DNA of 64,000 bases from a virus (Duplodnaviria; Heunggongvirae; Uroviricota; Caudoviricetes), in IMG/VR virus record IMGVR_UViG_3300047444_000069, positions 1 through 64,000 of that record; one strand, 5' to 3'. Numbering within the stretch: the stretch's first letter is position 1; the number at the start of each line of letters is the position of its first letter. Under the pieces are notes generated by a model, which searched no databases, was not told where the DNA came from, and saw nothing but the letters and a program-made list of their open reading frames with translations. Shown in pieces: positions 1,672 to 64,000 of the stretch. Made by a program: the position numbers and the translations under genes.

Positions 1672-1707
1672 GCCCTAAATACTCTCAGAAACACTCTGGG
1701 AGTAGTC

Positions 1708-15981: not shown

Positions 15982-16025
15982 GTCCTAAATACGTGAGAAT
16001 GAATTAACTATGGAGGATCATTCTC

Positions 16026-16181
16026 ATGCCAACCACGCACTTCGAATGTAATGATTGCGAAGCTGTTTTCGCCGTCAAGCATTCACTTAACAAAGACTAC
16101 TACCGTGTTCTGAATTGTCCGTTCTGCGGGTCGGAGCTAGACAACGAGGAATATGACGTAGACGAGAACATAGATGAATAA
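16026..16181 (+). CDS. small zinc-ribbon protein (51 aa)
   Basis: 'CNDCEA...CPFCGS'; SD GGAGG; not in ORF track (<60 aa); CTAAATA motif + hairpin in leader. Confidence 0.5.
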   Translation: MPTTHFECNDCEAVFAVKHSLNKDYYRVLNCPFCGSELDNEEYDVDENIDE

Positions 16182-16395: not shown

Positions 16396-16401
16396 GCCGC
16401 A

Positions 16402-16441
16402 TAAATACCCATACATTCAAAACGTATGGGTATTTTCATTT
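16402..16441 (+). terminator. rho-independent terminator
   Basis: AAATACCCATAC-loop-GTATGGGTATTT + TCATTTAT. Confidence 0.65.
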
Positions 16442-16843
16442 ATGTGGTTGTATCAAGGCAAAGAACAAACTGAAATTCCGGCTGGCATGGTTGGCTTCGT
16501 GTATCTAATCACTGACCATGTGAATAACAAGAAGTACATCGGTAAGAAGCTGTATCATTTTGCCAAGACCAAACAAGTCAAAGGCGTCAAGAAGAAGTAC
16601 AAGGCCGAATCAGATTGGCGCGAGTATTACGGATCGAATGACGAACTGAAGGCACTGGTCGAACTACACGGTCCCGAGAAGTTTACGCGCGAAATTCTTC
16701 ACCAATGCCCGAACAAGGGGGCTGCGAATTATTGGGAAGCCTATGAGCAATTCGTGCGCCACGTCCTGCTTTCGGACGAATATTACAATGGCTGGATTTC
16801 CGCAAAAATTACCAAAATGCATGTTGCCAAGCTGCGCAAGTAG
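16442..16843 (+). CDS. free-standing GIY-YIG nuclease-domain protein (short, no obvious DNA-binding domain)
   Basis: 'GFVYLITDHVNNKKYIGKK' GIY-YIG; 'REYYGSN' second motif; 133 aa. Confidence 0.65.
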   Translation: MWLYQGKEQTEIPAGMVGFVYLITDHVNNKKYIGKKLYHFAKTKQVKGVKKKYKAESDWREYYGSNDELKALVELHGPEKFTREILHQCPNKGAANYWEAYEQFVRHVLLSDEYYNGWISAKITKMHVAKLRK

Positions 16844-24006: not shown

Positions 24007-24536
24007 GCCGCTGGTGTAGCGCGCTTCAGAACATCGTCCTTATGTCCTTCGTACTTGACCGGCACATGATGCTGGTTGAGTACGACTGTCATACCATTGG
24101 CTGTGTAGCCGTGGTATCCATGATCAAGGACGGCGCGTTCGAAGTCGTTGCCTTTTTCTTCACCGTTGTATTTGTGAGTTTCCGCAGTCTTGTTGATCGC
24201 AGCACGTTCGTCTGAATGTGCCGTCACAGGATCATAAATGCCATGCAGCGTTGCGCTGTGTACGTGCATCCCCAGACCGCCTTCATGCACAGGCGGCAAT
24301 GCGCCATGTTCGGACTTGTTGTGGTTATAGAAATATACCCTCGACTTGATCCGGTCATCCTTCGTCCACTGAAGGCGCTTCCCTTCTTCTCCCTTGATTC
24401 CCTTCCCAGAATAGCGACCGTCCAGATGGTCGAGTCCCGGCTTATTCGAATAGTGAATGCCGTGGACAGTCGCGCCCTTCGTCGGCGCAGCTTCCTCGCG
24501 TTCGGCAAGGAACGATCTAAAAGTTTTCATTGACAT
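24003..24536 (-). CDS. His/Gly-rich protein (family member 1)
   Basis: 177 aa from 'MSMKTF'; SD GGGGG; many HG/HxH pairs; CTAAATA motif ~22 nt upstream on minus strand. Confidence 0.5.
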   Translation of the reverse strand: MSMKTFRSFLAEREEAAPTKGATVHGIHYSNKPGLDHLDGRYSGKGIKGEEGKRLQWTKDDRIKSRVYFYNHNKSEHGALPPVHEGGLGMHVHSATLHGIYDPVTAHSDERAAINKTAETHKYNGEEKGNDFERAVLDHGYHGYTANGMTVVLNQHHVPVKYEGHKDDVLKRATPAA

Positions 24537-24559
24537 AGCCCCCAATGTTGTAGTATTAT
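24530..24559 (+). promoter_or_regulatory. sigma70-like promoter TTGACA-15-TAGTAT
   Basis: drives 24593 gene; divergent from the minus-strand gene. Confidence 0.5.
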
Positions 24560-28279: not shown

Positions 28280-28308
28280 TTGACACAACTCCCGGATGCG
28301 GGTATGAT
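28280..28308 (+). promoter_or_regulatory. early promoter TTGACA-17-TATGAT
   Basis: IR GGTATGA/TCATACC around -10 (28301-28320); partial 'ctcccacgtttg' copy upstream. Confidence 0.55.
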
Positions 28309-32596: not shown

Positions 32597-33724
32597 ATGA
32601 GCAAGCAATATGATGTGGTGGTGTATCGCGGTCGGTTCCAAGGTTTCCACAATGCGCACCTGAAGACGATCCTGATGGCGCTTCAGTTCGCCAAGAAGGT
32701 CATCGTCGTGATCGGTAGTGCCAACGAAGCCCGCACGTACTATCGCAATCCGTTCTTTGAAGATGAGCGTATTGAGATGATCAAGGGCGCATTGTCCGAT
32801 CACTTCCGCCACGAAGACGTGTCGTTCGTTTCGGTTCAAGACAACCCGAGCGATAGCGCATGGGCGGAAGATGTCGAAGACAAGGTTGCCGCGCGTGTAA
32901 ATCGTCTGTTCGAAGGAACCGAAGGTGTCATCAGCATCGCACAGATCGGTTTCAAGAAAGACGCCAACTGCGAACGCGATGTCGATCTGTTCCCGACATG
33001 GGAATACATCGAGACACCCAACTTCGAACCGCTGGACGCTACGCATGTGCGCGAAGTTCTGTTCAGCATGAAGCCACTGTCGTTCCTCGCTGGCGTGTGT
33101 CCGCATTCGGTGATTCAGTATTTCGAAGCGTTCCGCCAGTCGCACACGTGGCTGAACATGTTCGAAGAAAAGATTTACGTCGAGAACTACCAGAAGCAGT
33201 TTGCTGGTCTTCCGTATGCTCCCACGTTCGTGACTGGCGACAACGTAGCAATTCAACGCGGTCGTGTGCTGTTGGTGAAGCGTGGCAATCATCCGGGCAA
33301 GGGTCTGTGGGCGCTTCCGGCTGGCTTCTTTAACGCCAAGAAGCATGTCACCAAGGGCGAAGTGATCCCCGCTGACCGTGATCCGCTGGATTGTGCCGTT
33401 CGAGAACTGTTCGAAGAAACGAAGGCCAAGGTGACGCGTCTCGAATTGGAAATGCGTGTGATCGGTGAGGAAGTGTTCGCGGCTGAAGATCGTGATCCGC
33501 GTGGCCGCATCATCACTCATGCGTTTGCCTACAACCTCGATACGCTGTCCGATCTTGAAACCGAAGCGGCGGATGATGCCACAGAAACCGGCTGGTTCTT
33601 CCTTGGTGACCTCGATCCCCGCACGATCTATGCGGACCACTTCCAGATCATCAAGTGGGGCTTCTTTGAGTACCACAAGGTCAGTAATTGGGCCTTGCAA
33701 GACCGAATGAACCGGCTGGTATAA
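32597..33724 (+). CDS. bifunctional NMN adenylyltransferase / Nudix ADP-ribose pyrophosphatase (NadM-Nudix)
   Basis: 'GRFQGFHNAH' (H/T)xGH nucleotidyltransferase motif; C-terminal Nudix box 'RELFEETKAKV'. Confidence 0.75.
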   Translation: MSKQYDVVVYRGRFQGFHNAHLKTILMALQFAKKVIVVIGSANEARTYYRNPFFEDERIEMIKGALSDHFRHEDVSFVSVQDNPSDSAWAEDVEDKVAARVNRLFEGTEGVISIAQIGFKKDANCERDVDLFPTWEYIETPNFEPLDATHVREVLFSMKPLSFLAGVCPHSVIQYFEAFRQSHTWLNMFEEKIYVENYQKQFAGLPYAPTFVTGDNVAIQRGRVLLVKRGNHPGKGLWALPAGFFNAKKHVTKGEVIPADRDPLDCAVRELFEETKAKVTRLELEMRVIGEEVFAAEDRDPRGRIITHAFAYNLDTLSDLETEAADDATETGWFFLGDLDPRTIYADHFQIIKWGFFEYHKVSNWALQDRMNRLV

Positions 33725-33742
33725 CAACTACAGGAAATAAAA

Positions 33743-35098
33743 ATGTACACAGCGAACATCCATCTGCCACAAAACTTCGTCCTTGAATCGGACTCCTACA
33801 AGTTTTCCCATGTCCCAGAAATCTACCCGGAAGGTACGGAAGCATTGCACGCGTATCTGTCGGCACGCGTGAAGGGTCAACGCGTGGTCCAGTTCGGTCC
33901 CTCGATGTGGATCAAGAAGAAGCTGCTGTCCCCGATCACACTGAAGATGATCAACGAAGCTGATGACTTCATCTCGGCGCACATCGGCCCCGGCGCATTC
34001 AATCGTGCGTTCTGGCTTCACATCCTGAACACGTATGGCGGTTTCATTCCGCTGACGATCCGTGGTCTGCCAGAAGGTACGGTCACGGACAGCTACGACA
34101 CGTTGCTGACGATTCAATGTGACGATCCGGTCTGCTTCCCGCTGGCACAGTTCATCGAAGCATCGCTTCAGTCGGACCTCTGGTACAGCACGACCATCGC
34201 GACGAACGATCTGGAAAACTACGAAGTCGCCAAATCGCACTTCGATTTGTTCTCGGATCAACCGCATCTTCTGCCGTTCATGCTGCATGACTTTGGCGCG
34301 CGGGGTTGTACGTCCGAAGAACAGCGTCAGATCGGCGGCGCTGCGCACCTGATCTTCTTCCAAGGTTCGGACACGATCAGCGGCATCCGTGCAGCAAACC
34401 TGTACTATGGCTGCGAGATGGCCGCGTATTCGGTTCGCGCAACTGAGCACAGCATTCAGTGTGCGTATGGTCCCGAAGGGCAAGAAGCCTACATTCAACG
34501 CGTTCTTGACGCACATGCAAAGCCGGGTAACATCGTCTCGCTGGTGCTTGATGGCTACAACGTCTGGCGCGAAGCTGAACTTCTGTGTACGAAGTTCAAG
34601 GAACAGATCGTCAACAGCGGCGCGAAGATCGTGTTCCGTCCTGATTCGGGCGACATGTTCGAAGTGGTTCCGCGTCTTCTGGAAATGCAAGCTGAAGCGT
34701 TCAGCTACACGGTCAATAGCAAGAACAAGAAGGTCATCAACAATGTCGGCCTGATTCAAGGCGATGGCATCGACAAGACCACGTTCATGTTGATGATGCA
34801 GAAGGTCGTATCCCTCGGCTATGCACCTGAATGCGTCGTCATGGGTTCTGGTGGTGGTCTGCTTCAGAAGGTCAACCGCGATACCCTGAAGTTCGCACAG
34901 AAGGCATCGTCCATCAAGATCAATGGCGAGTGGCGCGATATTTTTAAAGACCCGATTACCGATCCGGGCAAGAAGTCCAAGACGGGTTTGCAAGACGATC
35001 CGCGTTTCGTAACGTACTACACGCCCGATGAAGGTCTGGTATACAACGAAGACCTTGCAACGATCCGGGAACGTGCGTTCGCTGGCGCGGCTGTGTAA
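33743..35098 (+). CDS. nicotinamide phosphoribosyltransferase (NadV/NAMPT)
   Basis: 451 aa; N-terminal 'DSYKFSH' and overall PRTase type II features; adjacent to NadM-Nudix as in vibriophage KVP40. Confidence 0.75.
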   Translation: MYTANIHLPQNFVLESDSYKFSHVPEIYPEGTEALHAYLSARVKGQRVVQFGPSMWIKKKLLSPITLKMINEADDFISAHIGPGAFNRAFWLHILNTYGGFIPLTIRGLPEGTVTDSYDTLLTIQCDDPVCFPLAQFIEASLQSDLWYSTTIATNDLENYEVAKSHFDLFSDQPHLLPFMLHDFGARGCTSEEQRQIGGAAHLIFFQGSDTISGIRAANLYYGCEMAAYSVRATEHSIQCAYGPEGQEAYIQRVLDAHAKPGNIVSLVLDGYNVWREAELLCTKFKEQIVNSGAKIVFRPDSGDMFEVVPRLLEMQAEAFSYTVNSKNKKVINNVGLIQGDGIDKTTFMLMMQKVVSLGYAPECVVMGSGGGLLQKVNRDTLKFAQKASSIKINGEWRDIFKDPITDPGKKSKTGLQDDPRFVTYYTPDEGLVYNEDLATIRERAFAGAAV

Positions 35099-39140: not shown

Positions 39141-39443
39141 GTGTCGAATAACCTGATTAACAGTCCTGAAGCAAAGAAGCGTTTCAACAACAAGCTGTCG
39201 GAAATCTCGGCGTCCTTTACCCGCGTTGAAGCTGAACGCGATCTGGTGAAGACCATCGTGTCCGACCTCGCTGAAGAATTCCAGATCGACAAGAAGATCG
39301 TCAATCTGCTGGCCCGCACGTATCACAAGTCGGACTTCAAAGAGAAGGTCGCAGAGAAGACCGAATTCGAAATCATCTACGAAACCATTACGGGTGAAAG
39401 CCCGGAAGCCGGTGATTCGTATAACGGCGAAGATGGTGAGTGA
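39141..39443 (+). CDS. hypothetical protein (GTG start)
   Basis: 100 aa, helical, acidic tail. Confidence 0.4.
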   Translation: MSNNLINSPEAKKRFNNKLSEISASFTRVEAERDLVKTIVSDLAEEFQIDKKIVNLLARTYHKSDFKEKVAEKTEFEIIYETITGESPEAGDSYNGEDGE

Positions 39444-42274: not shown

Positions 42275-42481
42275 ATGCGAGTGACCCTCAACAAGATCAA
42301 CGCGGCAATCAAGGCCGCTGGCGGCGAAGACGAACTGGTCCGTGGTAATGGCTACTTCTACTTCGTTGGTGAAGACACCCCGAAGTGGCATCAGGCAAGC
42401 GTCTACACAATGTTCCTGAGTGACTTCACCGTGGAAGAATGGGTTGATATGTGGCGATCCATGAGTGGAAAAGCTAAATAG
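42275..42481 (+). CDS. hypothetical small protein
   Basis: 68 aa from 'MRVTLNK'. Confidence 0.45.
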   Translation: MRVTLNKINAAIKAAGGEDELVRGNGYFYFVGEDTPKWHQASVYTMFLSDFTVEEWVDMWRSMSGKAK

Positions 42482-42542: not shown

Positions 42543-43421
42543 ATGAAGACCTTCCATCAACTACGCCGGTACTTGAATGACCTTCCCCTGATCAGCGAAG
42601 AACTGCATCAGTCGATCACCAACGTTCTCGATTCGGAACACATCAAGCCCGAGCACAAGCTGAACCACGTTTCGTCGGCAATCCGCACGGCTATCAAGAA
42701 CGGCGAAGATCATGGTCTGGAAGATGCGAAGCCGAAGAAGGGTTCCAGTCGTGCCGTGTTCTTCCCGAAAGACCCGCACAAACTGAAGATCGATGGCGTC
42801 GATACGCACATGCCTACGGCCCTGAAGGTCGCGTTCCCCGGCCAATTGGACAAGTATAAGCATCATGACGAACCGTTGCTTGGAGAGGAACAGAACCGCG
42901 TAGAAGGCGATCATTGGACCAATCAACAGTATGGCGTCCTACGTCACGGTGATCGGTCTGGCGAGTACCATACGAACGAGCACGGCTTCCTTGCGCCGAT
43001 GCTGCACGCCCATGATGAAGGGCATCACATCCACTTCGGTAAGATCGAACCAATCAAGGCCGGTGACTTCCAGAAGCACACGAAAGCGCCCGGATTCGAG
43101 AAGGGTATCAGCCATCAGGAAATGTTCGACTACCTGAACCATCATCACGCAGAGGCACACGGACAGTCCTATACGGGCAAGACTTCGCCCGAGCGCATCG
43201 AGAAGCTTGACGATCACCCGATCCTCAACAACATGCACGGATGGATGGGTAACACTGGCGCACATCCCGCCGATCTAAACAAGCGGAACATGGGCATCTG
43301 GACGCATCCGGTGACGGGAAACAAACACATCGTGGTCAGCGACTACGGCTACACAGGTGATGTCGCCAAGCAGTACATGCAGCGACGACAGCGAGCAAGC
43401 AAAGCAATGCGGGGTTGGTAA
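42543..43421 (+). CDS. His-rich protein (family member 2)
   Basis: 292 aa, ~12% His incl. 'HAHDEGHHIHFG', 'NHHHAEAHG'; CTAAATAG 62 nt upstream. Confidence 0.6.
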   Translation: MKTFHQLRRYLNDLPLISEELHQSITNVLDSEHIKPEHKLNHVSSAIRTAIKNGEDHGLEDAKPKKGSSRAVFFPKDPHKLKIDGVDTHMPTALKVAFPGQLDKYKHHDEPLLGEEQNRVEGDHWTNQQYGVLRHGDRSGEYHTNEHGFLAPMLHAHDEGHHIHFGKIEPIKAGDFQKHTKAPGFEKGISHQEMFDYLNHHHAEAHGQSYTGKTSPERIEKLDDHPILNNMHGWMGNTGAHPADLNKRNMGIWTHPVTGNKHIVVSDYGYTGDVAKQYMQRRQRASKAMRGW

Positions 43422-46317: not shown

Positions 46318-47703
46318 ATGTCCGTACTTGAAATCCTGAATCAAATCGCCGCTACGTCGAAGAAGACGGAGAAAGAAGCGATCCTAAAGCAACACGCGGA
46401 AAATGAAACCCTGAAGCGGGTCTTCTATCTCGCGTATCAACCAACCATCAACTTCTACACGAAGCGCATCCCCGCATACACGCCCAATACGGGCGAGAAG
46501 TCGATCTTTGACGACGAAGATACCTTCACCCTCGATGCGGCGCTTGACGCCATTGAGACGGTTCTGGCGAAGCGCAAGGTGACTGGCAACGCAGCATCGA
46601 CGTATCTCGCGAATCTCCTGACGCAACTCCATGCTGACGACGCCACGGTCCTTGAACGGGTCGTACTGCGTGACCTTCGTATCGACGCGGGCGCAAACAC
46701 GGCTAACAAGGTCTGGAAGGCGCTGATCCTTGATGTCCCCTACATGCGGTGCAGTCTCCCCAAGGAAGTCAAACTAGCCACGTTTCCGTGGGCCACAGGG
46801 CTATATTCGCAACTGAAGTCGGACGGCAGCTTCACGAACGTCAACGTGTACGAAGATGGCACGGTTGAATTAATGACGCGCAACGGCAACGTCTACCCGG
46901 AAGAAGATTTCGCTCCGATTGCGAACATCTTCCGTGCGGCTGAAGGTACATGCGGCTATCAGTTCCACGGTGAATTGCTGGTCTACAAAGACGGCGAATT
47001 GATGGAACGCGCCGAAGGCAACGGCGTTCTGAACAAGATTCAACAAGGCAAGAACAAGCTTCCTGCCGGTCACGAAATCCGCTACGTCGCATGGGACATG
47101 ATCCCGATTGAAGCGGCGGTTCCGAAGGGCAAATATGAAGTCCCGTATGCGGTGCGCCTCGATGATCTTGAAAGTCTGAAGTTGTCTGGTGTGGTGTCCG
47201 TGGTTGAAACGAAAGTCGTCCATACGATCCGGGAAGCATACGAGCACTATCAGGAACAGTTGGCCCTTGGTCTGGAAGGCACGATCCTGAAAGACCCAGA
47301 AGCGATCTGGCAAGATACGACCAGTAAACAGCAGGTGAAATTCAAGCTAGAAGTCTGTGTTGAGCTTGAATGTGTCGGCTTCAATCCGGGCAAGGGTAAG
47401 AACGCTTCAACTTTCGGTAGCGCCAAGCTTCGTTCTTCTGATGGTCTGTTGACGGTGAACTGTTCGGGCTTCAAAGATGCCGACCGTAAGTACATCAGCG
47501 AGAACCGTGACGACTTCATCAGCACCATCTGGGCGGTCAAATCAAACGCCATGACGAAGAAGCGTGCCGATGGAACCCGCAGTCTGTTCTTGCCGCAGTA
47601 CGTCGAACAACGCAACGACAAGACCGAAGCTGATTCACTCGAACGCATCGAACTCCAATTCGAATCGGCAGTGACCGACCTCGAAAAACTGATTGCAATG
47701 TAA
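46318..47703 (+). CDS. ATP-dependent DNA ligase (T4 gp30-like)
   Basis: 461 aa; N-terminus 'LEILNQIAATSKKTEKEAILKQHAENETLKRVFYLAY' matches T4 ligase 'LKILNEIASIGSTKQKQAILEKNKDNELLKRVYRLTY'; 'GLEGTILKD' motif. Confidence 0.85.
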   Translation: MSVLEILNQIAATSKKTEKEAILKQHAENETLKRVFYLAYQPTINFYTKRIPAYTPNTGEKSIFDDEDTFTLDAALDAIETVLAKRKVTGNAASTYLANLLTQLHADDATVLERVVLRDLRIDAGANTANKVWKALILDVPYMRCSLPKEVKLATFPWATGLYSQLKSDGSFTNVNVYEDGTVELMTRNGNVYPEEDFAPIANIFRAAEGTCGYQFHGELLVYKDGELMERAEGNGVLNKIQQGKNKLPAGHEIRYVAWDMIPIEAAVPKGKYEVPYAVRLDDLESLKLSGVVSVVETKVVHTIREAYEHYQEQLALGLEGTILKDPEAIWQDTTSKQQVKFKLEVCVELECVGFNPGKGKNASTFGSAKLRSSDGLLTVNCSGFKDADRKYISENRDDFISTIWAVKSNAMTKKRADGTRSLFLPQYVEQRNDKTEADSLERIELQFESAVTDLEKLIAM

Positions 47704-47762
47704 AAGCCCGGTAGGAGTGCTAAATAGTTTTGACCGCACTCCTTATCACCCCGACCATATCA

Positions 47763-48199: not shown

Positions 48200-48994
48200 A
48201 TGGCACGAAATAAAAGGGCAAACAGTTCAGCCAAGCCCGCCGTGAAATCCAACGCACAGGCACAAAGCGTTCACCGTCAAGATCAACGTCAACAAGTCGA
48301 TCACGTCTCGAATCGCCTGAAGCTGCGTATTGATGATCTGAAAGTGTTTGATCCGCTGACGCAGAATCAGCGAGTGTTCTTCGAAGAATATGCCAATCAA
48401 CAGAACATGGCGTTTGTTCTTCACGGTGCAGCGGGCAGCGGGAAAAGTTTCATTGCCCTGTACAAAGCACTCGAAACTGTGTTGGACCCGTCGCTTCCGT
48501 TTGATGGTGTTGTCATCGTGCGATCAGCGGTCCCCGGTCGTGACATCGGTCACTTGCCCGGTAGCGAAGAAGAAAAGTTGGCGGTCTACGAGCAACCCTA
48601 CATCGGCATCTGCGCTGACCTGTTCGGACGCCATGACGCATACCAACGACTGAAAGAATCCGGCAACATCGACTTCATTTCATCGTCTTTCATTCGCGGC
48701 ACGACGCTGGACAACAAGATCGTGATCGTGGACGAAATGCAGAACTACAGTTGGGAAGAACTGTACACGATTGCAACTCGCGTAGGACACCGTACCAAGA
48801 TCATCTTTGCTGGCGACCTGCGTCAGACTGACCTTCGCAAGCGTGGCGATCCTTCCGGTCTGGTGAAGTTCCTTGACATCATGGCAACCATCCAGAACGT
48901 CGCAGAGATTGAGTTTGGCGTATCTGACATCGTGCGAAGCCAGTTCGTCAAATCTGTGATCGTTGCGACGATGGCATACGAAGACGCACATTAA
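48200..48994 (+). CDS. phoH: PhoH-like ATPase
   Basis: Walker A 'GAAGSGKSF', Walker B 'IVIVDEMQN'; 264 aa. Confidence 0.8.
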   Translation: MARNKRANSSAKPAVKSNAQAQSVHRQDQRQQVDHVSNRLKLRIDDLKVFDPLTQNQRVFFEEYANQQNMAFVLHGAAGSGKSFIALYKALETVLDPSLPFDGVVIVRSAVPGRDIGHLPGSEEEKLAVYEQPYIGICADLFGRHDAYQRLKESGNIDFISSSFIRGTTLDNKIVIVDEMQNYSWEELYTIATRVGHRTKIIFAGDLRQTDLRKRGDPSGLVKFLDIMATIQNVAEIEFGVSDIVRSQFVKSVIVATMAYEDAH

Positions 48995-49055
48995 GTGTGA
49001 CGTGCCGTTCACCGGGCTAGGGCACGATAAAATTACGGTCCCCGGTAGCATTCTA

Positions 49056-49106
49056 GGGTTCCTCGAAAGGCTAAATATTGATGTACATATTAGCCCGAAG
49101 GAACCC
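49056..49106 (+). promoter_or_regulatory. SD-sequestering leader hairpin containing CTAAATA late-promoter-like motif (T4 gene e-type)
   Basis: GGGTTCCTCG 49056-49065 pairs CGAAGGAACCC 49096-49106 (SD AAGGAA in 3' arm); CTAAATAT 49071-49078 in loop. Confidence 0.5.
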
Positions 49107-49109
49107 TAA

Positions 49110-49619
49110 ATGTCTTATACCCTGTCCGCAGCGGGCGCGAACCTAATCAAGCAGTTTGAGGGATGCAAACTCACTGCCTATTACGATTCGGTTGGTGTCC
49201 TCACAATCGGCTACGGAACGACCAACAGCGTCCTTCCGGCAAGCCAACAGATAAAACCCGGTCAAACGATCACTCTCGCACAAGCTGAGATTTTCCTCGC
49301 ACTTGGCGTGAATAAGTTCGCACCCGGCGTCAACAATCTGGTCAAGATTCCAATTTCTCAGAATGAGTTCGATTCGCTGGTTTGCTTCGCCTACAATGTT
49401 GGGACGGGTAACCTAGCTTCGTCAACACTCTTGCGCAAATTGAATGCTGGCGACATCGCTGGCGCACAGAAAGAATTCCTGAAGTGGAACAAAGCTGGTG
49501 GTCAAGTTCTTCGCGGACTGACGCGTCGGCGTCTCGCAGAAGCAGCGAACTTTGGTCCCCTGACGCGCCAACAACTGATCGATCAGTGTCTTGGTGGTAT
49601 CGATCCCGATAAAGCATAA
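49110..49619 (+). CDS. GH24 lysozyme / endolysin (T4 e-like)
   Basis: 'LIKQFEGCKLTAYYDSVGVLTIGYG' matches T4 lysozyme Glu/Asp/Thr catalytic region; 169 aa. Confidence 0.8.
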   Translation: MSYTLSAAGANLIKQFEGCKLTAYYDSVGVLTIGYGTTNSVLPASQQIKPGQTITLAQAEIFLALGVNKFAPGVNNLVKIPISQNEFDSLVCFAYNVGTGNLASSTLLRKLNAGDIAGAQKEFLKWNKAGGQVLRGLTRRRLAEAANFGPLTRQQLIDQCLGGIDPDKA

Positions 49620-51293: not shown

Positions 51294-51797
51294 TTGATAC
51301 TAATGAAGAAGAAAACCATCCTTGCCGTTCTGTTGGCGGCGCTGTGCATACGTACAGCGGTCCCGATAGAACACCCCTCAACGCCCATAGGACCAGACGT
51401 TCAGAAGGACATCAACTGTTTGGCAGAGAACGTCTACTATGAGGCACGCGGCGAATCGGATGACGGCAAGAAGGCTGTAGCCGAAGTCACAACGAACCGC
51501 GCAAGCACGCCCGGATTTCCCAACACTGTCTGTGGTGTGGTGCATCAAAAGACTGACCGGACGTGTCAGTTCTCATGGGTCTGTCAGCGTCATCGAGCGC
51601 CGATAGACAAGAAAGACCAAACTTGGGTCGAATCTAAAAATATTGCCACAGATGTCTTGCTGTTTGACGACGACCCCGGTATAATGAAGAAAAAGACGGC
51701 ACTGTTTTACCATGCCAACTACGTCAAACCCGGTTGGGCGCGACACATGAAGTTCATCAAGCGTATTGGTGGACACCTTTTCTACACCAAGAAGTAA
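51294..51797 (+). CDS. SleB/CwlJ-family cell-wall hydrolase with signal peptide
   Basis: 'ENVYYEARGESDDGKKAVAEVTTNRA' hallmark; N-terminal 'MKKKTILAVLLAALC'. Confidence 0.65.
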   Translation: MILMKKKTILAVLLAALCIRTAVPIEHPSTPIGPDVQKDINCLAENVYYEARGESDDGKKAVAEVTTNRASTPGFPNTVCGVVHQKTDRTCQFSWVCQRHRAPIDKKDQTWVESKNIATDVLLFDDDPGIMKKKTALFYHANYVKPGWARHMKFIKRIGGHLFYTKK

Positions 51798-51916: not shown

Positions 51917-52189
51917 ATGCAAGTTGAAGCACAAGAAGTGACCATCACCGATCAATATCTGATCACACGCGAATTCGCATCCGCTGAAGCGTTTTCCGTG
52001 TACATCGAAGAACGTGCCATCGTGGACGGCGAAAGCTTGATCGATACCATCCTCACATACTGCGAAGAACGTGACATCGATGTGGACGTGACGGCCAAGC
52101 TGGTCACGAAATCCCTCAAAGAAAAGCTGGCAGTTGAGTTCGAAGAACGGAACATGCTGCAAAGCGAACATGGCACACTGGACCTGTGA
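51917..52189 (+). CDS. hypothetical acidic protein
   Basis: 90 aa from 'MQVEAQE'. Confidence 0.4.
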   Translation: MQVEAQEVTITDQYLITREFASAEAFSVYIEERAIVDGESLIDTILTYCEERDIDVDVTAKLVTKSLKEKLAVEFEERNMLQSEHGTLDL

Positions 52190-52695
52190 TCCAAACATTC
52201 AAAGAATTTCTAATCGAGAAGTATGGGACGGCGGGGACGTATGCCGCGATGAAGTTCTCGCACACATCCGAACTGAATATCCGTAAGTTCCTCGTTCAGA
52301 ATGATGTCCCCAATTCGGTCCCACAAGACAAGCTGCATGTGACGCTGCTGTACTCGCGCAAGCCGATGGTCGGATATACGCCACGCGGCACGCTAACGGA
52401 GCCTGAGAAGGTCCGCGTCCTTGACTTTGCTGTCTGGGATACTCAGAACGGAAAGAAGGCGCTAGTGGCGCTCCTAGACGCTCCGAAGCTGATCATCCGA
52501 CACAAGGTTCTGATGCAGCAGTATGACGGCACGTATGACTTCCCGGATTACAAGCCACACTTCACCATGTCCTACGATGTTGGCCCCGACTTCAACAAAG
52601 ACAGTTTGCAAAAATTGACCGAACCGCTGTATCTCGACCGTGAGTATGGCGAAGAATTGAACACGAACTGGAAAGCAGATGACAAAACTGATTGA
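52186..52695 (+). CDS. 2H phosphoesterase superfamily protein (LigT/2'-5' RNA ligase-like)
   Basis: two H-x-T-x motifs: 'HVTLLYS' and 'HFTMSYD'; 169 aa. Confidence 0.6.
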   Translation: MIQTFKEFLIEKYGTAGTYAAMKFSHTSELNIRKFLVQNDVPNSVPQDKLHVTLLYSRKPMVGYTPRGTLTEPEKVRVLDFAVWDTQNGKKALVALLDAPKLIIRHKVLMQQYDGTYDFPDYKPHFTMSYDVGPDFNKDSLQKLTEPLYLDREYGEELNTNWKADDKTD

Positions 52696-53059: not shown

Positions 53060-53322
53060 TCAACGTCTCGACCGGCAAGCCGTTTGATGTGTATGTCGGT
53101 CGGGGTTCGAAGTGGGGCAACCCGTTCATCATTGGTCGGGACGGTACGCGAGATGAAGTCATCGAGAAGTACGAAGGCTGGATCATCCTGCAACCCCAAT
53201 TCGCTGACATCCATGAACTGTACGGCAAGATTCTGGGATGTCACTGTCATCCGAAACGATGTCACGGACACTCGCTTGAACGTCTTGCCGTTCAGCAGCA
53301 CCAACCATCCTTCTTTGATTGA
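53053..53322 (+). CDS. DUF4326-like protein
   Basis: 'DVYVGRGSKWGNPF...GCHCHPKRCHG'. Confidence 0.5.
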   Translation: MVVNVSTGKPFDVYVGRGSKWGNPFIIGRDGTRDEVIEKYEGWIILQPQFADIHELYGKILGCHCHPKRCHGHSLERLAVQQHQPSFFD

Positions 53323-53918
53323 GCATGACACCATTCGGCGCATACAAGTGTTATTTGGCCTTCCGCAGTCACTTCACCACGGACAGCTACGACATCATCA
53401 AGTATCGTGGCCGCGTGAGTGCCAAGCTGGAAACCTTCGAGAAGCGCAAGGACCGATACCGGTTCGAGAAGTTGGCCCGGAACAGTAGCGACAAAGAGAT
53501 TGTTGATACATACCTTGCCAACTTCACAAGCAAGCCTGACTATTCTGGTCTGTTCGATGACCAGACAGAGACGCGGTACAAGAAGTGGTCCGCGTACCAA
53601 CAAGCACTGTCGTACAACTTTGGGAATGAAGTGAAATACTTGTTGGAAGATGCAAAAAGTTCAGGTTTGTGTTATAATGACGTTTTCGACAGTAGTGATC
53701 GTCAACACCCGCCAGTCCTCACAGCATACCTCGGCAAGTCCATATCCGTTGATACCTTCGTGATTCTCGACCGTCTAAATAGTTTCACAAACAAGATGGT
53801 CGATGATGTAGTGACGAAAGACATCCTTCGCACTGCACGCAAGTACGACCCATTCCTAAAGGTTGATCTGGAAGTATATGGGAAACTCAACGAGAGAATC
53901 AGAAGCGAAGTCTTCTGA
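53319..53918 (+). CDS. helicase loading protein (T4 gp59-like)
   Basis: 'FGAYKCYLAFRSHFTTDSYDIIKYRGRVSAKLETFEKRKDRYRFEKLARNS' parallels T4 gp59 'GKSVYKLYLMIKQHMNGKYDVIKYNWCMRVSDAAYQKRRDKYFFQKLSEKY'. Confidence 0.75.
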   Translation: MSMTPFGAYKCYLAFRSHFTTDSYDIIKYRGRVSAKLETFEKRKDRYRFEKLARNSSDKEIVDTYLANFTSKPDYSGLFDDQTETRYKKWSAYQQALSYNFGNEVKYLLEDAKSSGLCYNDVFDSSDRQHPPVLTAYLGKSISVDTFVILDRLNSFTNKMVDDVVTKDILRTARKYDPFLKVDLEVYGKLNERIRSEVF

Positions 53919-54073: not shown

Positions 54074-54241
54074 ATGGGTAAGTCAAGAAATTTTCGTCCA
54101 GAAGAACGCAGCATTCATCGGGCGAAGCCGACCGCAGATAAGTCGGGCAAGTACAAGCACACTCTCTATGTCGTTGAAGATGACGACGAAGATGATGGGC
54201 TTACATGGGAAGAACTTGAAGGTCCGCTGGACGATGACTAA
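54074..54241 (+). CDS. 55-aa protein with strongly acidic C-terminus
   Basis: '...LYVVEDDDEDDGLTWEELEGPLDDD'; preferred over overlapping ORF 54042..54245. Confidence 0.35.
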   Translation: MGKSRNFRPEERSIHRAKPTADKSGKYKHTLYVVEDDDEDDGLTWEELEGPLDDD

Positions 54242-54343
54242 ATAAGCAGTACAAACGAAGTACGTGAACTTTCTATATGAGGCAAATCATGCAAGACAAA
54301 ATCGCAAACAATCGAACTAATCTCGAAATAGGTAGAAAACAAA

Positions 54344-55333
54344 ATGGCAAAATCATTCTCGGAACTCCGCAAGCAACGTGGCGACCTCGCTGACCTCACG
54401 AAGAAGCTTGAACAGCAATCCTCTGGCGGCAAGAAAGAAGACGACCGCTTCTGGTCGTGCCAGACTGACAAAGCTGGTAATGGTTCCGCAGTGATCCGCT
54501 TCCTCCCGGCACCGGCTGGCGAAGAAGACGCATGGGTCAAGCTGTACACACACGGTTTCCAAGGCCCGACTGGTAAGTGGTATATCGAAAATTCGCTGAC
54601 CACGATTGGCCGCGATGATCCGGTCACCGAACTGAATAACGAATTGTGGGCTTCGAAGTCGAAGGCCAACGAAGAAATCGCACGCAAGCAAAAGCGCAAG
54701 CTTGGCTATTACAGCAACGTGTACATTGTCTCGGACCCGGCGAACCCGGATAACGAAGGCAAGGTTAAAATCTTCCGCTACGGCAAGAAGATTCACGACA
54801 AGCTGATGTCGGCACTCAAGCCCGAGTTTGAAGAAGACGAAGCGTTCAACCCGTTCGACCTCTGGACTGGTGCGAACTTCCGCCTGAAGATTGCGAAGGT
54901 TGAAGGTTATGCAAACTTCGACAAGTCATCGCTCGCAAAGCCGGGTCCGTTGAAGGAAGACGACGACGAACTCGAAAAGATTTGGGAACAGTGCCACTCG
55001 CTGAAGGCGATCATCGCTGAAGATCAATTCAAGTCGTATGACGATCTTCTGAAGCGCTTGAACTTCGTGCTGGCAACCGGTACTGCACCGCGCAGTGCTG
55101 AGAAGTCCGAAATCAGCGACGAAGATCAAGACTTCATCCGTTCGCAAGCGAAGAACACGAAGACTTCGGAAGCGTCCGACGAACACGAAGACCTTCCGCC
55201 GTTCGATGTCGATCCGGCACCGCCGAAGAAGGAATCCCCGGCGAAGGCTGCGGCAGCAAAGGCAGCAACGAAGCAAGTGGTCGATGACGAAGATGACGAC
55301 CTCGCATTCTTCAAGAAGCTTGCTGAAGGTTAA
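54344..55333 (+). CDS. single-stranded DNA-binding protein (T4 gp32-like)
   Basis: 'DKAGNGSAVIRFLPAP' vs T4 'DNAGNGQAVIRFLPSK'; 'VSDPANPDNEGKVKIFRYGKKIHDKL' vs T4 '[26 protein letters not shown]'; acidic C-terminal tail. Confidence 0.85.
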   Translation: MAKSFSELRKQRGDLADLTKKLEQQSSGGKKEDDRFWSCQTDKAGNGSAVIRFLPAPAGEEDAWVKLYTHGFQGPTGKWYIENSLTTIGRDDPVTELNNELWASKSKANEEIARKQKRKLGYYSNVYIVSDPANPDNEGKVKIFRYGKKIHDKLMSALKPEFEEDEAFNPFDLWTGANFRLKIAKVEGYANFDKSSLAKPGPLKEDDDELEKIWEQCHSLKAIIAEDQFKSYDDLLKRLNFVLATGTAPRSAEKSEISDEDQDFIRSQAKNTKTSEASDEHEDLPPFDVDPAPPKKESPAKAAAAKAATKQVVDDEDDDLAFFKKLAEG

Positions 55334-57837: not shown

Positions 57838-58536
57838 CTATCCGAAAAAAGCTTCGACGCCTTCGAGTGTGTACTGCGTTTCCTTCTCGCAGTGCGGACA
57901 TTTATCCGTGAAGGTGTGACGCAGAACCGGCATCGTGCGGAAGAAGTCTTCTATCTTGGCGAATTGTTCGGTCGTCAAGGCTTCGACAAACTGTGCAACT
58001 TCTTCTGGTGTTTCGTCTTTGGTTTGGTGAACCTCTGTCTCAGTGAAGACCGATTCGATACACTGGCAGATTGTTTGGTAGACCGTATCAACGGAGTAGT
58101 TCTTGTTGAGGAACGACAGTTGATCGGTGGTTGGGTAAGCCATCTCGACGCCCAGATTGTCGGCCAAGATGATCTTCTTGGTATGGTCTTTGTTCTTCTG
58201 GACCTCGACAATGGAAAGAGGCAGATTGTGTTCGTGATCCGCCTTGCAGTGTTGGCACGTCAAAATCAGATCGACAGTTTCGCCGGATGACTTGGATCGA
58301 ATCTGAAGGAACAAATATTCAAGATCGAAGTTAGGCATCGCTTCGACATCAAGCTTCTCGAATGTACATGCATTGACGGCTTCTTTGATTGCAAGGAGAA
58401 CGTCCGCTTCGCCGCCTTCAACGGCCATCAGCATGTTTTTCTGTTCACCTACCAACCAAGGACGGTACTTGATAGTCTTTCCCGTTGAGGGCACTTTAGT
58501 CTGGTAGGTCGGGGTCGTGTTGCGCGGGAGTGACAT
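57838..58536 (-). CDS. hypothetical protein with two Cys pairs (CQHC...CPHC), possible zinc ribbon; possibly structural
   Basis: 232 aa; GATAAATAG late-like motif ~30 nt upstream on minus strand. Confidence 0.5.
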   Translation of the reverse strand: MSLPRNTTPTYQTKVPSTGKTIKYRPWLVGEQKNMLMAVEGGEADVLLAIKEAVNACTFEKLDVEAMPNFDLEYLFLQIRSKSSGETVDLILTCQHCKADHEHNLPLSIVEVQKNKDHTKKIILADNLGVEMAYPTTDQLSFLNKNYSVDTVYQTICQCIESVFTETEVHQTKDETPEEVAQFVEALTTEQFAKIEDFFRTMPVLRHTFTDKCPHCEKETQYTLEGVEAFFG

Positions 58537-58576
58537 GTTTGATCATGAAAGTGGATTACGATCCACTATTTATCCC

Positions 58577-58604
58577 TTGACGCGAATTCCCAGACGTGTA
58601 TAAT
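58577..58604 (+). promoter_or_regulatory. early promoter cassette TTGACG-16-TATAAT
   Basis: 'TTGACGcgaATTCCCAgACgTGTATAAT'. Confidence 0.6.
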
Positions 58605-61579: not shown

Positions 61580-61774
61580 ATGAAATACACACAAGAACAA
61601 CTTCAAGAGATGGCCGCTGAATTCATGGGCCAACTGACCGGACACAACGATGTGCGCTGTCACCAACTGATCGGTGAAATGTCGCAACGTCTCGGAATCC
61701 ATCCGAACGCCATCGAACAGGGCATTCATATGCTCGCGATGGGTATGCAGTTCGAAGTTCGCGCAGCGGCTTAG
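61580..61774 (+). CDS. hypothetical small protein
   Basis: 64 aa from 'MKYTQEQ'; SD AAAGGA. Confidence 0.4.
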   Translation: MKYTQEQLQEMAAEFMGQLTGHNDVRCHQLIGEMSQRLGIHPNAIEQGIHMLAMGMQFEVRAAA

Positions 61775-62574
61775 GCCACGAAGCTGACCATGTTGCGGAA
61801 GCTAGATTCGACGGACGACACCTTCGAACTGATCTGCGACGAAACTGATTTAATGATGTCTCCACCCGCCAACACATTCTGCTGTTGCACGACAGAAGCC
61901 TGAAGCTTCTTCGATTCAATCTCGATACATGACCACTTCCGGTAAGCAAAGGTCACCGTGACTTTCTGAAAGTTCTGTGACCCTGCTGAACCCGTCATCG
62001 ATGATACGACCTTTGGGAATGCATTCTCCAATGCAACCTGATAGATCGTCCCATCAAGTCGATCCAACTGCGAAATCACAATATCGCATTCGTAGGTGTC
62101 CGGGTACGCAACCATCTGTGTATCATTCGGGACAATCGCATCCATCCAGTAATCAAACAGCTTCTTCGAGTTCATATCACGATCCATCAGCATCGTGATG
62201 GCGACGCCTTGGTCGCCGCCGTAGTCTATCCCAATCGGCATCGGTTGCGGTGCGCCGAAGGTGCGGCGTTCCTTGGTCTGAAGTATCGCGGAAGGGAAGA
62301 CGACCGATTCGACGCGCATCATGGTGGATCGTAGATACTGGTAGTACGTCGAACCCATAAGGCACGTTGGCGTACCGATGTAGACCTCATATCGGCTTTC
62401 AGAAGCAAGGCCCGTATTGAGAACTTCTTCCTTGAAGTTCTCGAACCCGTCTTTGGCGAACGATGTGGCGCTCGATTTGGTCTTGCCAATCCCGAGCGCA
62501 TCACGCACCACGTCACCGGCTGAATTCACTACATTGTTGAGGCCATTGATCGGCAGTAAATCAAGAAGTGACAT
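61771..62574 (-). CDS. putative baseplate/tail-tube-fold structural protein (T4 gp19/gp48/gp54-like pattern)
   Basis: 267 aa; 'YEVYIGTPTCLMGS...FPSAIL...TFGAPQPMPIGIDYGGDQG...DYWMDAI' resembles tube-fold family. Confidence 0.4.
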   Translation of the reverse strand: MSLLDLLPINGLNNVVNSAGDVVRDALGIGKTKSSATSFAKDGFENFKEEVLNTGLASESRYEVYIGTPTCLMGSTYYQYLRSTMMRVESVVFPSAILQTKERRTFGAPQPMPIGIDYGGDQGVAITMLMDRDMNSKKLFDYWMDAIVPNDTQMVAYPDTYECDIVISQLDRLDGTIYQVALENAFPKVVSSMTGSAGSQNFQKVTVTFAYRKWSCIEIESKKLQASVVQQQNVLAGGDIIKSVSSQISSKVSSVESSFRNMVSFVA

Positions 62575-62586
62575 GAGGATTCCTTA

Positions 62587-63180
62587 TTAAACGTGTTGCT
62601 TGGCGTCAAACCAAACTTTCTGCTTACTTGCCTTCTGGAACTGCTCAGTTGGGAGCAACGCGACCATTGGCCATGATGATGATGGTACTTCGAGATACTT
62701 CGATTCCAAACCATCATCACGATAGAGTTTGTACGCGAAGTCCGCGCCAAGGTTCTTTGCCTTCGATAGACGCATGAGGATGTCATAGGACAGTTTCATG
62801 CGTGTGGTTGCATCGAACCGGTCATTGTTTGCAAGATCGTACATGGCGATAAGCAATTTGAGACGCATGGGCGGCGGCAGGTAATGCATATTGATCCCTG
62901 TCCAATAATTGTGACCGTTCTTCGAAAACTTATCAATATAGAAGATACACGGAAAGCGGTCCCAATATTTCAGATCGTCCTTAGTGATAGCATCGTACTT
63001 AAACATGTACATTTTTCCGGGCGTCGGGTACGCGACGTTAGCCGTCTGTAACAGCCTACTATCCTTATAGCTGCTTCTGTTCAGTGCTTTGATGGACGCG
63101 GTGAACCAATCCAACGACTGTCGCATGTTGGCTTTGGTTACTTTGAAGTTATCGAACGGTGATGGTTTACGCGTTGCCAT
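62587..63180 (-). CDS. hypothetical protein, probably virion-associated
   Basis: 197 aa; SD; co-oriented with structural-looking genes. Confidence 0.45.
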   Translation of the reverse strand: MATRKPSPFDNFKVTKANMRQSLDWFTASIKALNRSSYKDSRLLQTANVAYPTPGKMYMFKYDAITKDDLKYWDRFPCIFYIDKFSKNGHNYWTGINMHYLPPPMRLKLLIAMYDLANNDRFDATTRMKLSYDILMRLSKAKNLGADFAYKLYRDDGLESKYLEVPSSSWPMVALLPTEQFQKASKQKVWFDAKQHV

Positions 63181-63859
63181 TGAGTCGGTTCAGTAGATAT
63201 GTTTCGATTTCGGGTGAGAACGTGTAGGTTCCATCTTGAAGGCTTGCTTTCCCTGCAACCAACCATCGCTTCAGAGAATGCTGAGTAGTCCTGAATGTTT
63301 TGCAGAAAGCCAATACACCCTTGTATGTTTTATCCCCAACGACAAGCAATTTCTTGACTTTCTCGCGAGAAGCTATGTACCGTTCAAGACGTTCGCCATC
63401 GAACTTGACACCTTTATTTAGTGCCGACAGCCTTGCTTTATCTTCTTCGGAAAAGATGCGACCGCCTTTACCGGGCTTGCCAAGCTTTGCCTCGCGCATC
63501 TTCGCTTTTGATTCTTCCGTGTGCTTCTTTCCCCGCATTCCCGATTCGCCGCCGCGCGTAACGTTGTATCCCTTATCCGCACCATCAAGGACGCAGCAAT
63601 CGTGTTCTCGGATGAAGTCCGGTTCCTTGACCTTCAGACAATGTTCGCCATCCAACGACTGATATATCACTTCAAATGTGAAGTTCTTTACACCATACTT
63701 TGAAAGGGCCGCATGAAGGATGGAATAGGAATTTTGATCGGGGCAGTTGCGGATACGGCGATGCTGCTTCCAGCGTTCTTTTGGTTGTTTGGACGTGAAA
63801 CCGATGTAGACCTTACCGTTGACGTGGTTGGTGATGCGATAGATTGTATAAATATGCAT
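63167..63859 (-). CDS. GIY-YIG homing endonuclease with NUMOD3-like DNA-binding motif
   Basis: 'IYTIYRITNHVNGKVYIGFTSK' GIY-YIG; 'NVTRGG'; 'HTEESKAKMREAKLGK' NUMOD3; CTAAATAG upstream on minus. Confidence 0.75.
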   Translation of the reverse strand: MHIYTIYRITNHVNGKVYIGFTSKQPKERWKQHRRIRNCPDQNSYSILHAALSKYGVKNFTFEVIYQSLDGEHCLKVKEPDFIREHDCCVLDGADKGYNVTRGGESGMRGKKHTEESKAKMREAKLGKPGKGGRIFSEEDKARLSALNKGVKFDGERLERYIASREKVKKLLVVGDKTYKGVLAFCKTFRTTQHSLKRWLVAGKASLQDGTYTFSPEIETYLLNRLNGNA

Positions 63860-63882
63860 AGTAGGTTTTGTGTTTAGGCCCG

Positions 63883-63920
63883 GACGGTGACAGCCGTACC
63901 GGGCTTTTTGTTGTTCACCT
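63883..63920 (+). other. stable hairpin + T-run (5'-UTR structure of minus-strand endonuclease gene or orphan + terminator)
   Basis: GCCCGGACGG-tgacag-CCGTACCGGGC then TTTTTGTTGTT. Confidence 0.4.
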
Positions 63921-64000
63921 ACTATTTAGTAAAACGAAGATTTTGAGATATTTGTATGGCTGTAAGTCTTTTTTTCTCTCACTTGATCCCAAGTTCCTTC

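Follow-up and report, generated by a model that had tools for sequence, protein, structure and literature searches.

This study concerns a 64,000-nucleotide stretch of DNA (IMG/VR record IMGVR_UViG_3300047444_000069, positions 1 to 64,000; hereafter, the window) from an uncultured T4-like myovirus, and in particular the leader of its lysozyme gene (49110-49619). It is fairly probable that in this phage a late promoter of the form (C/A/G)TAAATA lies within or next to hairpins that mask the ribosome-binding sites (RBSs) of the lysozyme gene and about six other genes, so that these genes would be translated only from RNA started at their own promoter. Such a mechanism is established for the T4 genes e, soc, 49, and I-TevI (PMC3014915) and also for I-TevII, I-TevIII, segB, and mobE of Aeromonas phage Aeh1 (PMC2988022); the translational control of T4 gene e was described by McPheeters et al. 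1986, as reviewed in PMC3014915. The window holds a clear new example of this known mechanism and opens no new one. An initial annotation, made from the sequence, had proposed gene-e-style dual control of the lysozyme gene with CTAAATA as the candidate late promoter. The former proposal is supported by masking at seven of 11 motif sites, by energies like those of T4 gene e, and by compensatory changes, and the latter by the over-representation and conservation of the motif, its virion-gene context, and its match to Aeh1.

Results

The lysozyme leader hairpin

The leader of the lysozyme gene contains the following elements:
49054-49065, plus strand: 5' arm of the stem, which lies upstream of the motif and folds
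49069-49095, plus strand: inner helix (49069-49078 with 49087-49095) plus apical loop, as in the minimum-energy fold
49071-49077, plus strand: CTAAATA, an exact match
49096-49108, plus strand: 3' arm, which holds the Shine-Dalgarno (SD) sequence AAGGAA (49098-49103) and ends one nucleotide before the ATG at 49110
49110-49619, plus strand: GH24 lysozyme gene, 169 aa (PF00959, E = 2e-46)

The stem pairs 49056-49065 (GGGTTCCTCG) with 49096-49106 (CGAAGGAACCC), leaving A49099 bulged, and in the minimum-energy fold it extends to 12 pairs with one bulge (49054-49065/49096-49108), reaching the AUG. The leader folds with -31 kcal/mol (z = -5.04), and none of 200 shuffles is as stable, which bears out the 10-bp stem that the initial annotation had described as burying AAGGAA. 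The motif had been placed in the loop of this stem; it is indeed enclosed by the stem, but CTAAATAT (49071-49078) forms the 5' strand of the inner helix 49069-49078/49087-49095 rather than an open loop. With the spacing of T4 and Aeh1, in which the last A of the promoter lies at -6 (PMC1524935), late transcription of the lysozyme gene is predicted to start at about 49083. As the 5' arm lies upstream of the motif, it would be absent from the predicted late transcripts, and no significant fold was found for lysozyme RNA starting at 49084.

Ribosome-binding site opening on long and late RNA

The same genome was located in the Logan assemblies of SRR26075503, by which flanks of 8.5 kb past the right end of the window (contig L093) and 10 kb past its left end (L255) were added. 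Opening cost was defined as the free energy required to make the RBS single-stranded, the RBS being taken as the stretch that begins 16 nt before the start codon and ends with the third base of that codon. It was computed for a long RNA that reaches 66 nt upstream of the predicted start and for a late RNA that begins at the predicted start, 6 nt after the last A of the motif. The costs on long and then on late RNA were:
Lysozyme gene: 21.4 to 3.1 kcal/mol
Gene 1708: 17.2 to 3.9 kcal/mol
175-aa gene at 24530, minus strand: 17.4 to 6.4 kcal/mol
gp48: 13.4 to 3.6 kcal/mol
gp4: 12.3 to 4.4 kcal/mol
Zinc-ribbon gene 16026: 12.3 to 5.8 kcal/mol
gp26: 8.9 to 2.9 kcal/mol
Homing endonuclease gene (HEG): 7.5 to 0.1 kcal/mol

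No relief was seen at 42474, 47720 (3.4 to 1.0 kcal/mol), or 67821; at 42474 none is predicted because the RBS pairs with sequence downstream of the predicted start. Over the 11 motif sites, the median cost is 12.3 kcal/mol on long RNA and about 4 kcal/mol on late RNA, with a median relief of 7.4 kcal/mol, and relief at the masked sites ranges from 6 to 18 kcal/mol. For 45 genes with neither promoter type, the median cost is 5.5 and the median relief 1.1 kcal/mol. The motif sites differ from these controls in both cost (Mann-Whitney p = 0.0015) and relief (p = 0.0008), in a comparison that is imperfectly matched because the control genes mostly have coding sequence upstream and the motif sites have spacers. 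This mismatch is not shared by a test in which only the upstream 66 nt were shuffled, with dinucleotides preserved and 200 shuffles per site. The observed occlusion was reached by no shuffle at the lysozyme gene and at the minus-strand 24557 site, by one at the HEG, two at gp4, three each at gp48 and gene 1708, and six at gp26, so that masking is specific to the pre-start segment at seven of the 11 motif sites. If T4 spacing is assumed, at seven to eight of the 11 sites the RBS pairs with bases no further downstream than +6 relative to the motif. A masking hairpin need not accompany the motif, since four sites show no specific relief and the occlusion at these was often matched by shuffled sequence.

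When T4 gene e was run through the same script, the cost fell from 16.0 to 3.9 and from 16.8 to 1.2 kcal/mol for its two late promoters. The computed effect at the lysozyme gene matches the size of the experimentally proven gene e effect.

Conservation of the structures

Relatives were taken from IMG/VR contigs only, namely, R1 and R2 (each about 168 kb) and the fragments R3 to R6. A scan of metagenomes for the lysozyme yielded a single clade member (L094, the same as L003), already known from IMG/VR, and the remaining matches were about 59% identical and came from unrelated phages of about 45 kb. Since no further clade member was added, covariation rests on four to five sequences.

In the four related lysozyme leaders the same two-tier hairpin is present (z = -3.7 to -6.0), with the SD in the 3' arm, the motif between the arms, and the inner helix also retained. 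Leader L002 carries a compensatory change, from GGGTTCC/GGAACCC to GGATTCC/GGAATCC, in L001 the closing U-A pair is flipped to A-U, and L004 has wholly different arms (GATTCTCGC/GCGAGAAATC). Covariation is also found at 1708, 16026, 24557, and 47720, and the occlusion and relief computed in relatives persist at 1708, 16026, 24557, the lysozyme gene, gp26, and gp48. These changes indicate that the hairpins are under selection and kept with compensatory change, within a small sample of three to six sequences per site and with small covariation counts.

Alignment of the five leaders with MAFFT followed by RNAalifold gave no consensus structure, the arms being out of register, and for this reason per-sequence folds and an anchor-based comparison were used. 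With a covariance model based on the window hairpin, L002, L001, and L003 were recovered but L004, the most divergent leader, was not; the alignment from this model was not used for pair counts because the model also matched the reverse strand of the near-palindrome. An explanation of the arms as a protein operator was ruled out, as arm sequences differ between sites and covary within each.

The (C/A/G)TAAATA motif

CTAAATA occurs 10 times in the window, where 1.78 copies are expected, and none of 100 dinucleotide-preserving shuffles reaches 10. Its core, TAAATA, occurs 20 times (8.9 expected), a count again reached by no shuffle. Exact copies of CTAAATA begin at 1675, 15985, 42474, 47720, 49071, 53775, and 54238 on the plus strand and lie at 24557, 63415, and 63923 on the minus strand. 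Fifteen of the 20 TAAATA copies are non-coding, and nearly all aim at the next start codon, 19-60 nt downstream. When all 7-mers were ranked in the sense-oriented upstream spacers of the window, CTAAATA (p = 7e-6) was the best promoter-like word outside the early-promoter family, being outranked only by members of that sigma-70-like family (GTTGACA, ATTCCCAAACCTG, GTATAAT) and by one other, A-rich word, AAAACAA. The initial annotation had put forward as a check a genome-wide enrichment test upstream of structural genes; in the window, enrichment is found in sense-oriented upstream non-coding DNA.

Across 21 aligned sites TAAATA is invariant, the preceding base is C in 13, A in five, G in two, and T in one, and the second base after the core is T in 14; neither a -35 element nor any other upstream signal was found in the alignment. 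In R1-R6 TAAATA is kept at nearly every homologous position, within surroundings (300 nt) that are 70-90% identical. The base before it switches among C, A, and G (C>A>G) between orthologous sites, and the element is therefore written (C/A/G)TAAATA. At the lysozyme gene, GCTAAATATT is invariant across the five homologous leaders, in which mean column identity is 65%.

Some sites had been listed before with other letters or positions. CTAAATA(G) had been reported at 58566-58573, where the letters are ATAAATAG and not CTAAATAG, though R2 has CTAAATAG there. The remaining sites are present, with corrected coordinates for two of them (53775-53781 in place of 53771, and 63923-63929 in place of about 63933), and two copies had been overlooked, at 54238 (100 nt before gene 32) and at 63415 (inside the HEG).

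An A+T-rich heptamer containing TAA might be expected to gather near stop codons, and hairpins are common in spacers. At a few sites the TAA forms or adjoins a stop codon, or the motif runs into a start codon (21599, 6378). Chance or base composition is nevertheless very improbable as the source of the pattern, for stop codons account for only a minority of the motif sites, the counts were never matched in shuffles that preserve dinucleotides, the copies are strongly biased in orientation, and relatives have kept the hexamer.

A candidate late promoter

CTAAATA is supported as a late-promoter candidate, the term late being drawn from homology and from the genes beside it. Across the window and the added flanks, copies of the motif immediately precede gp26, the endonuclease-gp2-tube operon, gp4 (head completion), gp48 (tube cap), and a 261-aa gene of the baseplate cluster. 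In R1, where the endonuclease is absent, ATAAATAGTAG stands directly before gp2, and both R1 and R2 have CTAAATAG upstream of gp5. The sigma-70-like family, by contrast, precedes small plus-strand genes that are non-structural or have no function assigned. The late machinery found comprises gp33 (PF16805, phrog_254), which in T4 is the late-transcription co-activator, and a homologue of DsbA, an accessory factor of T4 late transcription.

With T4-type late promoters the element shares a short, A/T-rich, -10-like form without a -35 box, a position upstream of virion genes, and a genome that encodes gp33. In T4 the late promoter, TATAAATA, spans -13 to -6, and CTAAATA is the predicted late consensus of Aeh1, starting at -12 (PMC1524935); the late promoter of cyanomyoviruses is NATAAATA (PMC2984593). 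The 7-mer of the window is identical to the Aeh1 consensus. With TATAAATA it has the core TAAATA in common but no T/A at the T4 -13/-12 positions.

It is improbable that (C/A)TAAATA is a real element of another kind, such as a middle promoter, a promoter read by the host sigma with a phage factor, or a regulator site. The failure to find gp55 in the window or the 8.5-10 kb flanks would suit such a role, as would the position of the motif before the non-structural genes 1708, ThyX (8853), gene 32, and the zinc-ribbon genes; furthermore, MotA/AsiA are missing from cyanophage-type T4-like phages, for which middle expression has been proposed to arise from early and late promoters that overlap (PMC2984593). 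Against this stand the core shared with T4 and the 7-mer shared with Aeh1 (PMC1524935), the lack of a -35 or other partner beside the motif, and the lack of the T that invariably ends a sigma-70 -10 box. Moreover, the motif precedes every structural transcription-unit start seen, with the sigma-70-like family before small non-structural plus-strand genes, and gp33 is encoded.

Other motif sites

The remaining sites with their hairpins are:
1675-1681, plus strand: CTAAATA before gene 1708 (224 aa), with stem 1680-1689/1695-1704 burying the SD GGGAG (z = -4.1)
15985-15991, plus strand: CTAAATA before gene 16026 (51-aa zinc-ribbon protein), with stem 15992-16002/16018-16028 (z = -4.0)
16401-16407, plus strand: ATAAATA, followed by a terminator-like hairpin (CCCATAC/GTATGGG and a T-rich tail), before the SegE-like gene
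24563-24557, minus strand: CTAAATA in the loop of a 14-bp stem, 24583-24570/24552-24539 (z = -3.3), before a 175-aa His-rich gene (ATG 24530)
42474-42480, plus strand: CTAAATA before a His-rich 292-aa gene (ATG 42543); relatives have ATAAATA
47710-47747, plus strand: hairpin that follows the DNA ligase gene (z = -3.5); its loop contains CTAAATAG (47720-47727)
53775-53781, plus strand: CTAAATA inside the gp59-like gene, 560 nt upstream of gene 32, conserved in R1-R4
54238-54244, plus strand: CTAAATA 100 nt upstream of gene 32 (ATG 54344), conserved in R1
58567-58573, minus strand: ATAAATA before the gp26-like gene (ATG 58536); CTAAATA in R2
63858-63929, minus strand: HEG leader, with CTAAATA at 63929-63923 and an arm at 63925-63917 (AUAGUAGGU) pairing with 63866-63858 (ACCUACUAU) over the AUG

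Two geometries can be distinguished. In the first (lysozyme gene and minus-strand 24557), the motif is found in the loop or inner helix, with the arm upstream of it; in the second, the arm runs from the last base of the motif, about -6 to +3 (gene 1708, the endonuclease, gp26, and the gene before L258:12236), as it does in T4 gene e. The 5' arm before gene 1708 covers positions -7 to +3 relative to the predicted start, and the hairpin is kept in three relatives, one of them with the arms CTCCCG/CGGGAG. The stem that had been proposed here as burying GGGAG was recovered, at slightly shifted limits. At 16026 the initial annotation had seen the same arrangement; the stem is real, yet it covers the AUG and leaves the SD (GGAGG) in the loop, and the predicted late start removes its 5' arm only in part. 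The arms of this stem differ in every relative and nonetheless always pair (GAGAATGA/TCATTCTC, GAAGATG/CATCTTC, GCAGATG/CATCTGC, GTGGAAT/ATTCCAC).

The stem at 24583-24539 buries the SD GGGGG of the 175-aa gene and is kept in R1 and R2, and its CTAAATA overlaps the -10 box of a divergent, plus-strand early promoter. That this gene and the one behind 42474 are His-rich, as had been noted, is confirmed by their composition (9-10% His). The two proteins (42543-43421, plus strand, and 24003-24530, minus strand) both begin with MKTF, have no family matches, and carry a late-type motif upstream; 24003-24530 is the sole minus-strand gene inside a long plus-strand block. The gp26 motif stands back to back with the plus-strand early promoter at 58577, and the local hairpin there is not significant (z = -1.4). 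The hairpin that had been placed at 47714-47742 with the motif in its loop is upheld as 47710-47747. It precedes a zinc-ribbon regulator-like gene (ATG 47763) and masks no RBS, and its arms covary in relatives (AGGAGTGC/GCACTCCT, GGGAGTGC/GCACTCCC, TTGGAAGTGC/GCACTTCCAA).

The HEG leader folds with -30.4 kcal/mol (z = -5.6), and a strong, G+C-rich, terminator-like hairpin lies inside its loop (63878-63904, minus strand). On the plus strand this hairpin is followed by TTTTTGTTGTT and resembles an intrinsic terminator for plus-strand transcription; such a terminator would stop plus-strand transcription running antisense through the gp2 and endonuclease genes. The HEG is inserted between a late-type promoter and gp2, and a second CTAAATA (63421-63415) lies within its open reading frame (ORF), 235 nt upstream of gp2, which recalls the promoters embedded in T4 seg/mob genes (PMC2988022).

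At 16401, ATAAATACC is invariant in five relatives and the 5' arm of the terminator-like hairpin begins right after the motif; a transcript from this motif would bypass the adjoining hairpin. Between gp4 (minus strand) and gp48 (plus strand), just past the window end, lies a 34-bp palindrome, CCTAAATATTAGTTG-tataaaa-CAACTATTTAGG, at window-equivalent 64442-64474 (L093:8101-8133) and conserved in R1. It contains two divergent CTAAATA copies, and the complement of each (TATTTAGG) is the AGG/SD-containing arm by the start of the opposite gene. Upstream of gene 32, a leader of about 100 nt (54245-54343) runs from CTAAATA to the start and is conserved in R1, with no match in Rfam. In T4, the leader of gene 32 contains a pseudoknot and serves in autoregulation.

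It is unlikely that the hairpins are 3'-end, terminator, processing, or stability elements that share short spacers with the motif, with RBS masking as a by-product. Some of them do touch no RBS (47710-47747) or resemble terminators (16408-16440 with its T-rich tail, and 63878-63904), the spacers are short (30-60 nt), and relief is missing at four of 11 sites. However, the terminator scan found nothing at the lysozyme, 1708, and 24557 stems and no T-tract follows them; in each of the five lysozyme leaders the SD region makes up the 3' arm and the motif is enclosed by the two arms; motif sites are more strongly occluded than other genes, and their occlusion is tied to the pre-start segment; and geometry and energies match the proven case of T4 gene e (PMC3014915). 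As intrinsic terminators in particular, the masking stems were ruled out on the lack of T-tracts and the empty scan.

Early promoters and a possible genome-wide rule

About 20 sigma-70-like early promoters were observed, with a conserved spacer and downstream box (TTGACA-n-(A)TTCCCAAAC(C/T)TG-TATAAT-TCTTnnCATCGACAAC):
3671, 17617, 17960, 24530, 25684, 26111, 28280, 29832, 31232, and 35114, plus strand: early promoters
35501, 36548, 38362, 42083, 43485, 44247, 58577, 59390, 60156, and 61238, plus strand: early promoters, continued

At 28280, 59390, 43485, and 31232, the conserved 17-bp spacer (ATTCCCAA...) is complementary to the downstream SD, and for 28280 the computed cost of opening the RBS drops from 20.0 to 2.6 kcal/mol, which means that read-through RNA would be masked there as well. 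Extension of masking to the early-promoter class as a whole was rejected, as four of 19 promoters show a relief of at least 6 kcal/mol (p = 0.13 and 0.32 against controls). The complementarity stems partly from the conserved spacer TTCCCAA matching GGGAG-type SDs, and its conservation in relatives is mixed.

The location of most late promoters in RBS-masking hairpins, the gp4/gp48 palindrome, and the early-promoter spacers with anti-SD sequence leave it conceivable, though rather doubtful, that promoter-gated translation is a genome-wide design rule of the clade and not a device for a few dangerous genes. If this were true, an ORF on read-through RNA would be silent unless transcription had begun at its own promoter.

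Gene content of the window

The window has a G+C content of about 51%, and 13.8% of it is non-coding in our gene model. A near-identity DNA search against a phage collection returned zero matches, so no close DNA relative is present among the deposited phages, and the Rfam search of the window likewise gave zero matches. The best identity of gp32 is 48%, to gp32 of T4-like cyanophages and not to that of Aeh1. Besides the lysozyme gene, the following genes were assigned:
253-1671: gp41-type helicase
8853-9689: ThyX
16442-16843, plus strand: SegE-like GIY-YIG gene, 133 aa (PF19835)
32597-35098: NMNAT-Nudix protein and NAMPT (NAD salvage)
39141-39443, plus strand: T4 DsbA-like protein (PF11126 in the precomputed annotation)
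46318-47703: DNA ligase
48200-48994: PhoH
51420-51797: endolysin-like ORF, 125 aa (phrog_938)
51917-52189, plus strand: gp33 homologue (PF16805; phrog_254, E = 1.6e-17)
52186-52695: Acb1 anti-CBASS phosphodiesterase
53319-53918: gp59-like gene (phrog_269)
54344-55333, plus strand: gene 32 (PF08804)
57838-58536, minus strand: gp26 baseplate hub-like gene (ATG 58536)
61771-62574, minus strand: tube-family protein
62587-63180, minus strand: gp2
63167-63859, minus strand: GIY-YIG homing endonuclease (phrog_314)
Minus-strand virion gene: tail-lysin-like protein, 754 aa

Discussion

In the proposed mechanism, a gp55-type sigma together with gp33 would read (C/A/G)TAAATA, as with TATAAATA in T4. The 3' arm of the hairpin would be the SD/AUG region and the 5' arm would lie upstream of the late start. 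RNA entering from upstream (for instance, early read-through initiated at the sigma-70-like promoters 44247 and 44960) would carry both arms, fold, and keep the RBS shut. RNA starting about 6 nt after TAAATA would lack the 5' arm and could be translated, and each of the products concerned (lysozyme, homing endonuclease, gp4, gp48, and others) would be synthesized solely from the late promoter of its own gene. The analysis shows the counts of the motif, its conservation and gene context, and the hairpins with their conservation and geometry; where transcription starts, when it does so, whether RNA reads through from upstream, and how translation responds are inferred. A scan of the interval between the early promoters 44247/44960 and the lysozyme gene found no terminator-like site.

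Several points weigh against this mechanism. Neither gp55 nor gp45 was found in the window or in the 8.5-10 kb flank past each end, the 6-nt spacing used to predict the start is taken over from T4 and Aeh1, and the motif also precedes genes without an obvious late role (1708, the zinc-ribbon genes, ThyX, and gene 32). The hairpins at 47710-47747 and 49000-49027 could halt read-through before it reaches the lysozyme gene. The four sites without specific relief are 16026 (21 of 200 shuffles), 42474, 47720, and 67821, and to these points the imperfect matching of the control genes and the small covariation counts are to be added.

T4 gene e is among the closest parallels. In both phages, the lysozyme gene can be reached by upstream transcription, a stable hairpin pairs its SD/AUG region, and the late promoter is placed such that late RNA loses the 5' strand. 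T4 has two late promoters there and the window one, with TATAAATA in the former and CTAAATA in the latter; in T4 the arm starts at the end of the first promoter, whereas here the arm lies upstream and the promoter is paired in the inner helix. The HEG resembles the homing endonuclease genes of T-even phages and Aeh1 mobE (PMC2988022), in that CTAAATA is followed by a 9-nt arm pairing with the AUG region and the start is predicted to be free only in RNA from its own promoter. It differs in being free-standing, between a late promoter and gp2, absent from R1, and without an obvious SD, and the read-through RNA masked here would itself probably be late, from the gp4 promoter. As with T4 soc and gene 49 (PMC3014915), several unrelated genes of one genome follow promoter-in-hairpin logic, and masking seems to be more widespread in this phage, where it was found at seven of the 11 motif sites, including the gp4/gp48 divergent-promoter palindrome.

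Structures of the e type have been reported only in close T-even relatives; Aeh1, 44RR, 25, and 31 were reported without one, and cyanophages lack gene e (PMC3014915). The lysozyme of the window belongs to a P22-/endolysin-like branch of GH24 that is different from T4 lysozyme: among solved structures, 9kbq and related lysozymes are the nearest matches, P22 lysozyme (2anv) matches at 1e-19, and T4 lysozyme is absent from the matches. Its nearest homologues outside the clade (about 59% identical) occur in phage or prophage contigs of about 45 kb, many from human-gut assemblies, and their place in such contigs suggests horizontal acquisition of the lysozyme. Because the lysozyme is of this other branch, with homologues in ~45-kb phages, the arrangement was probably not inherited together with gene e; judged by these affinities, the promoter-in-hairpin arrangement was probably rebuilt in a distant lineage. 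The endolysin-like ORF at 51420-51797 lies 1.8 kb downstream of the lysozyme gene and has no TAAATA before it.

The gene-e paradigm would thus reach beyond the T-even phages, into an uncultured T4-like lineage far removed from them, in a neat case of convergence that is unsurprising to a T4 specialist. For annotation of the clade, (C/A)TAAATA offers a usable late-promoter consensus. Finally, as homing endonuclease, head-completion, and baseplate genes are concerned alike, promoter-dependent translation looks like a common answer to read-through in dense phage genomes.

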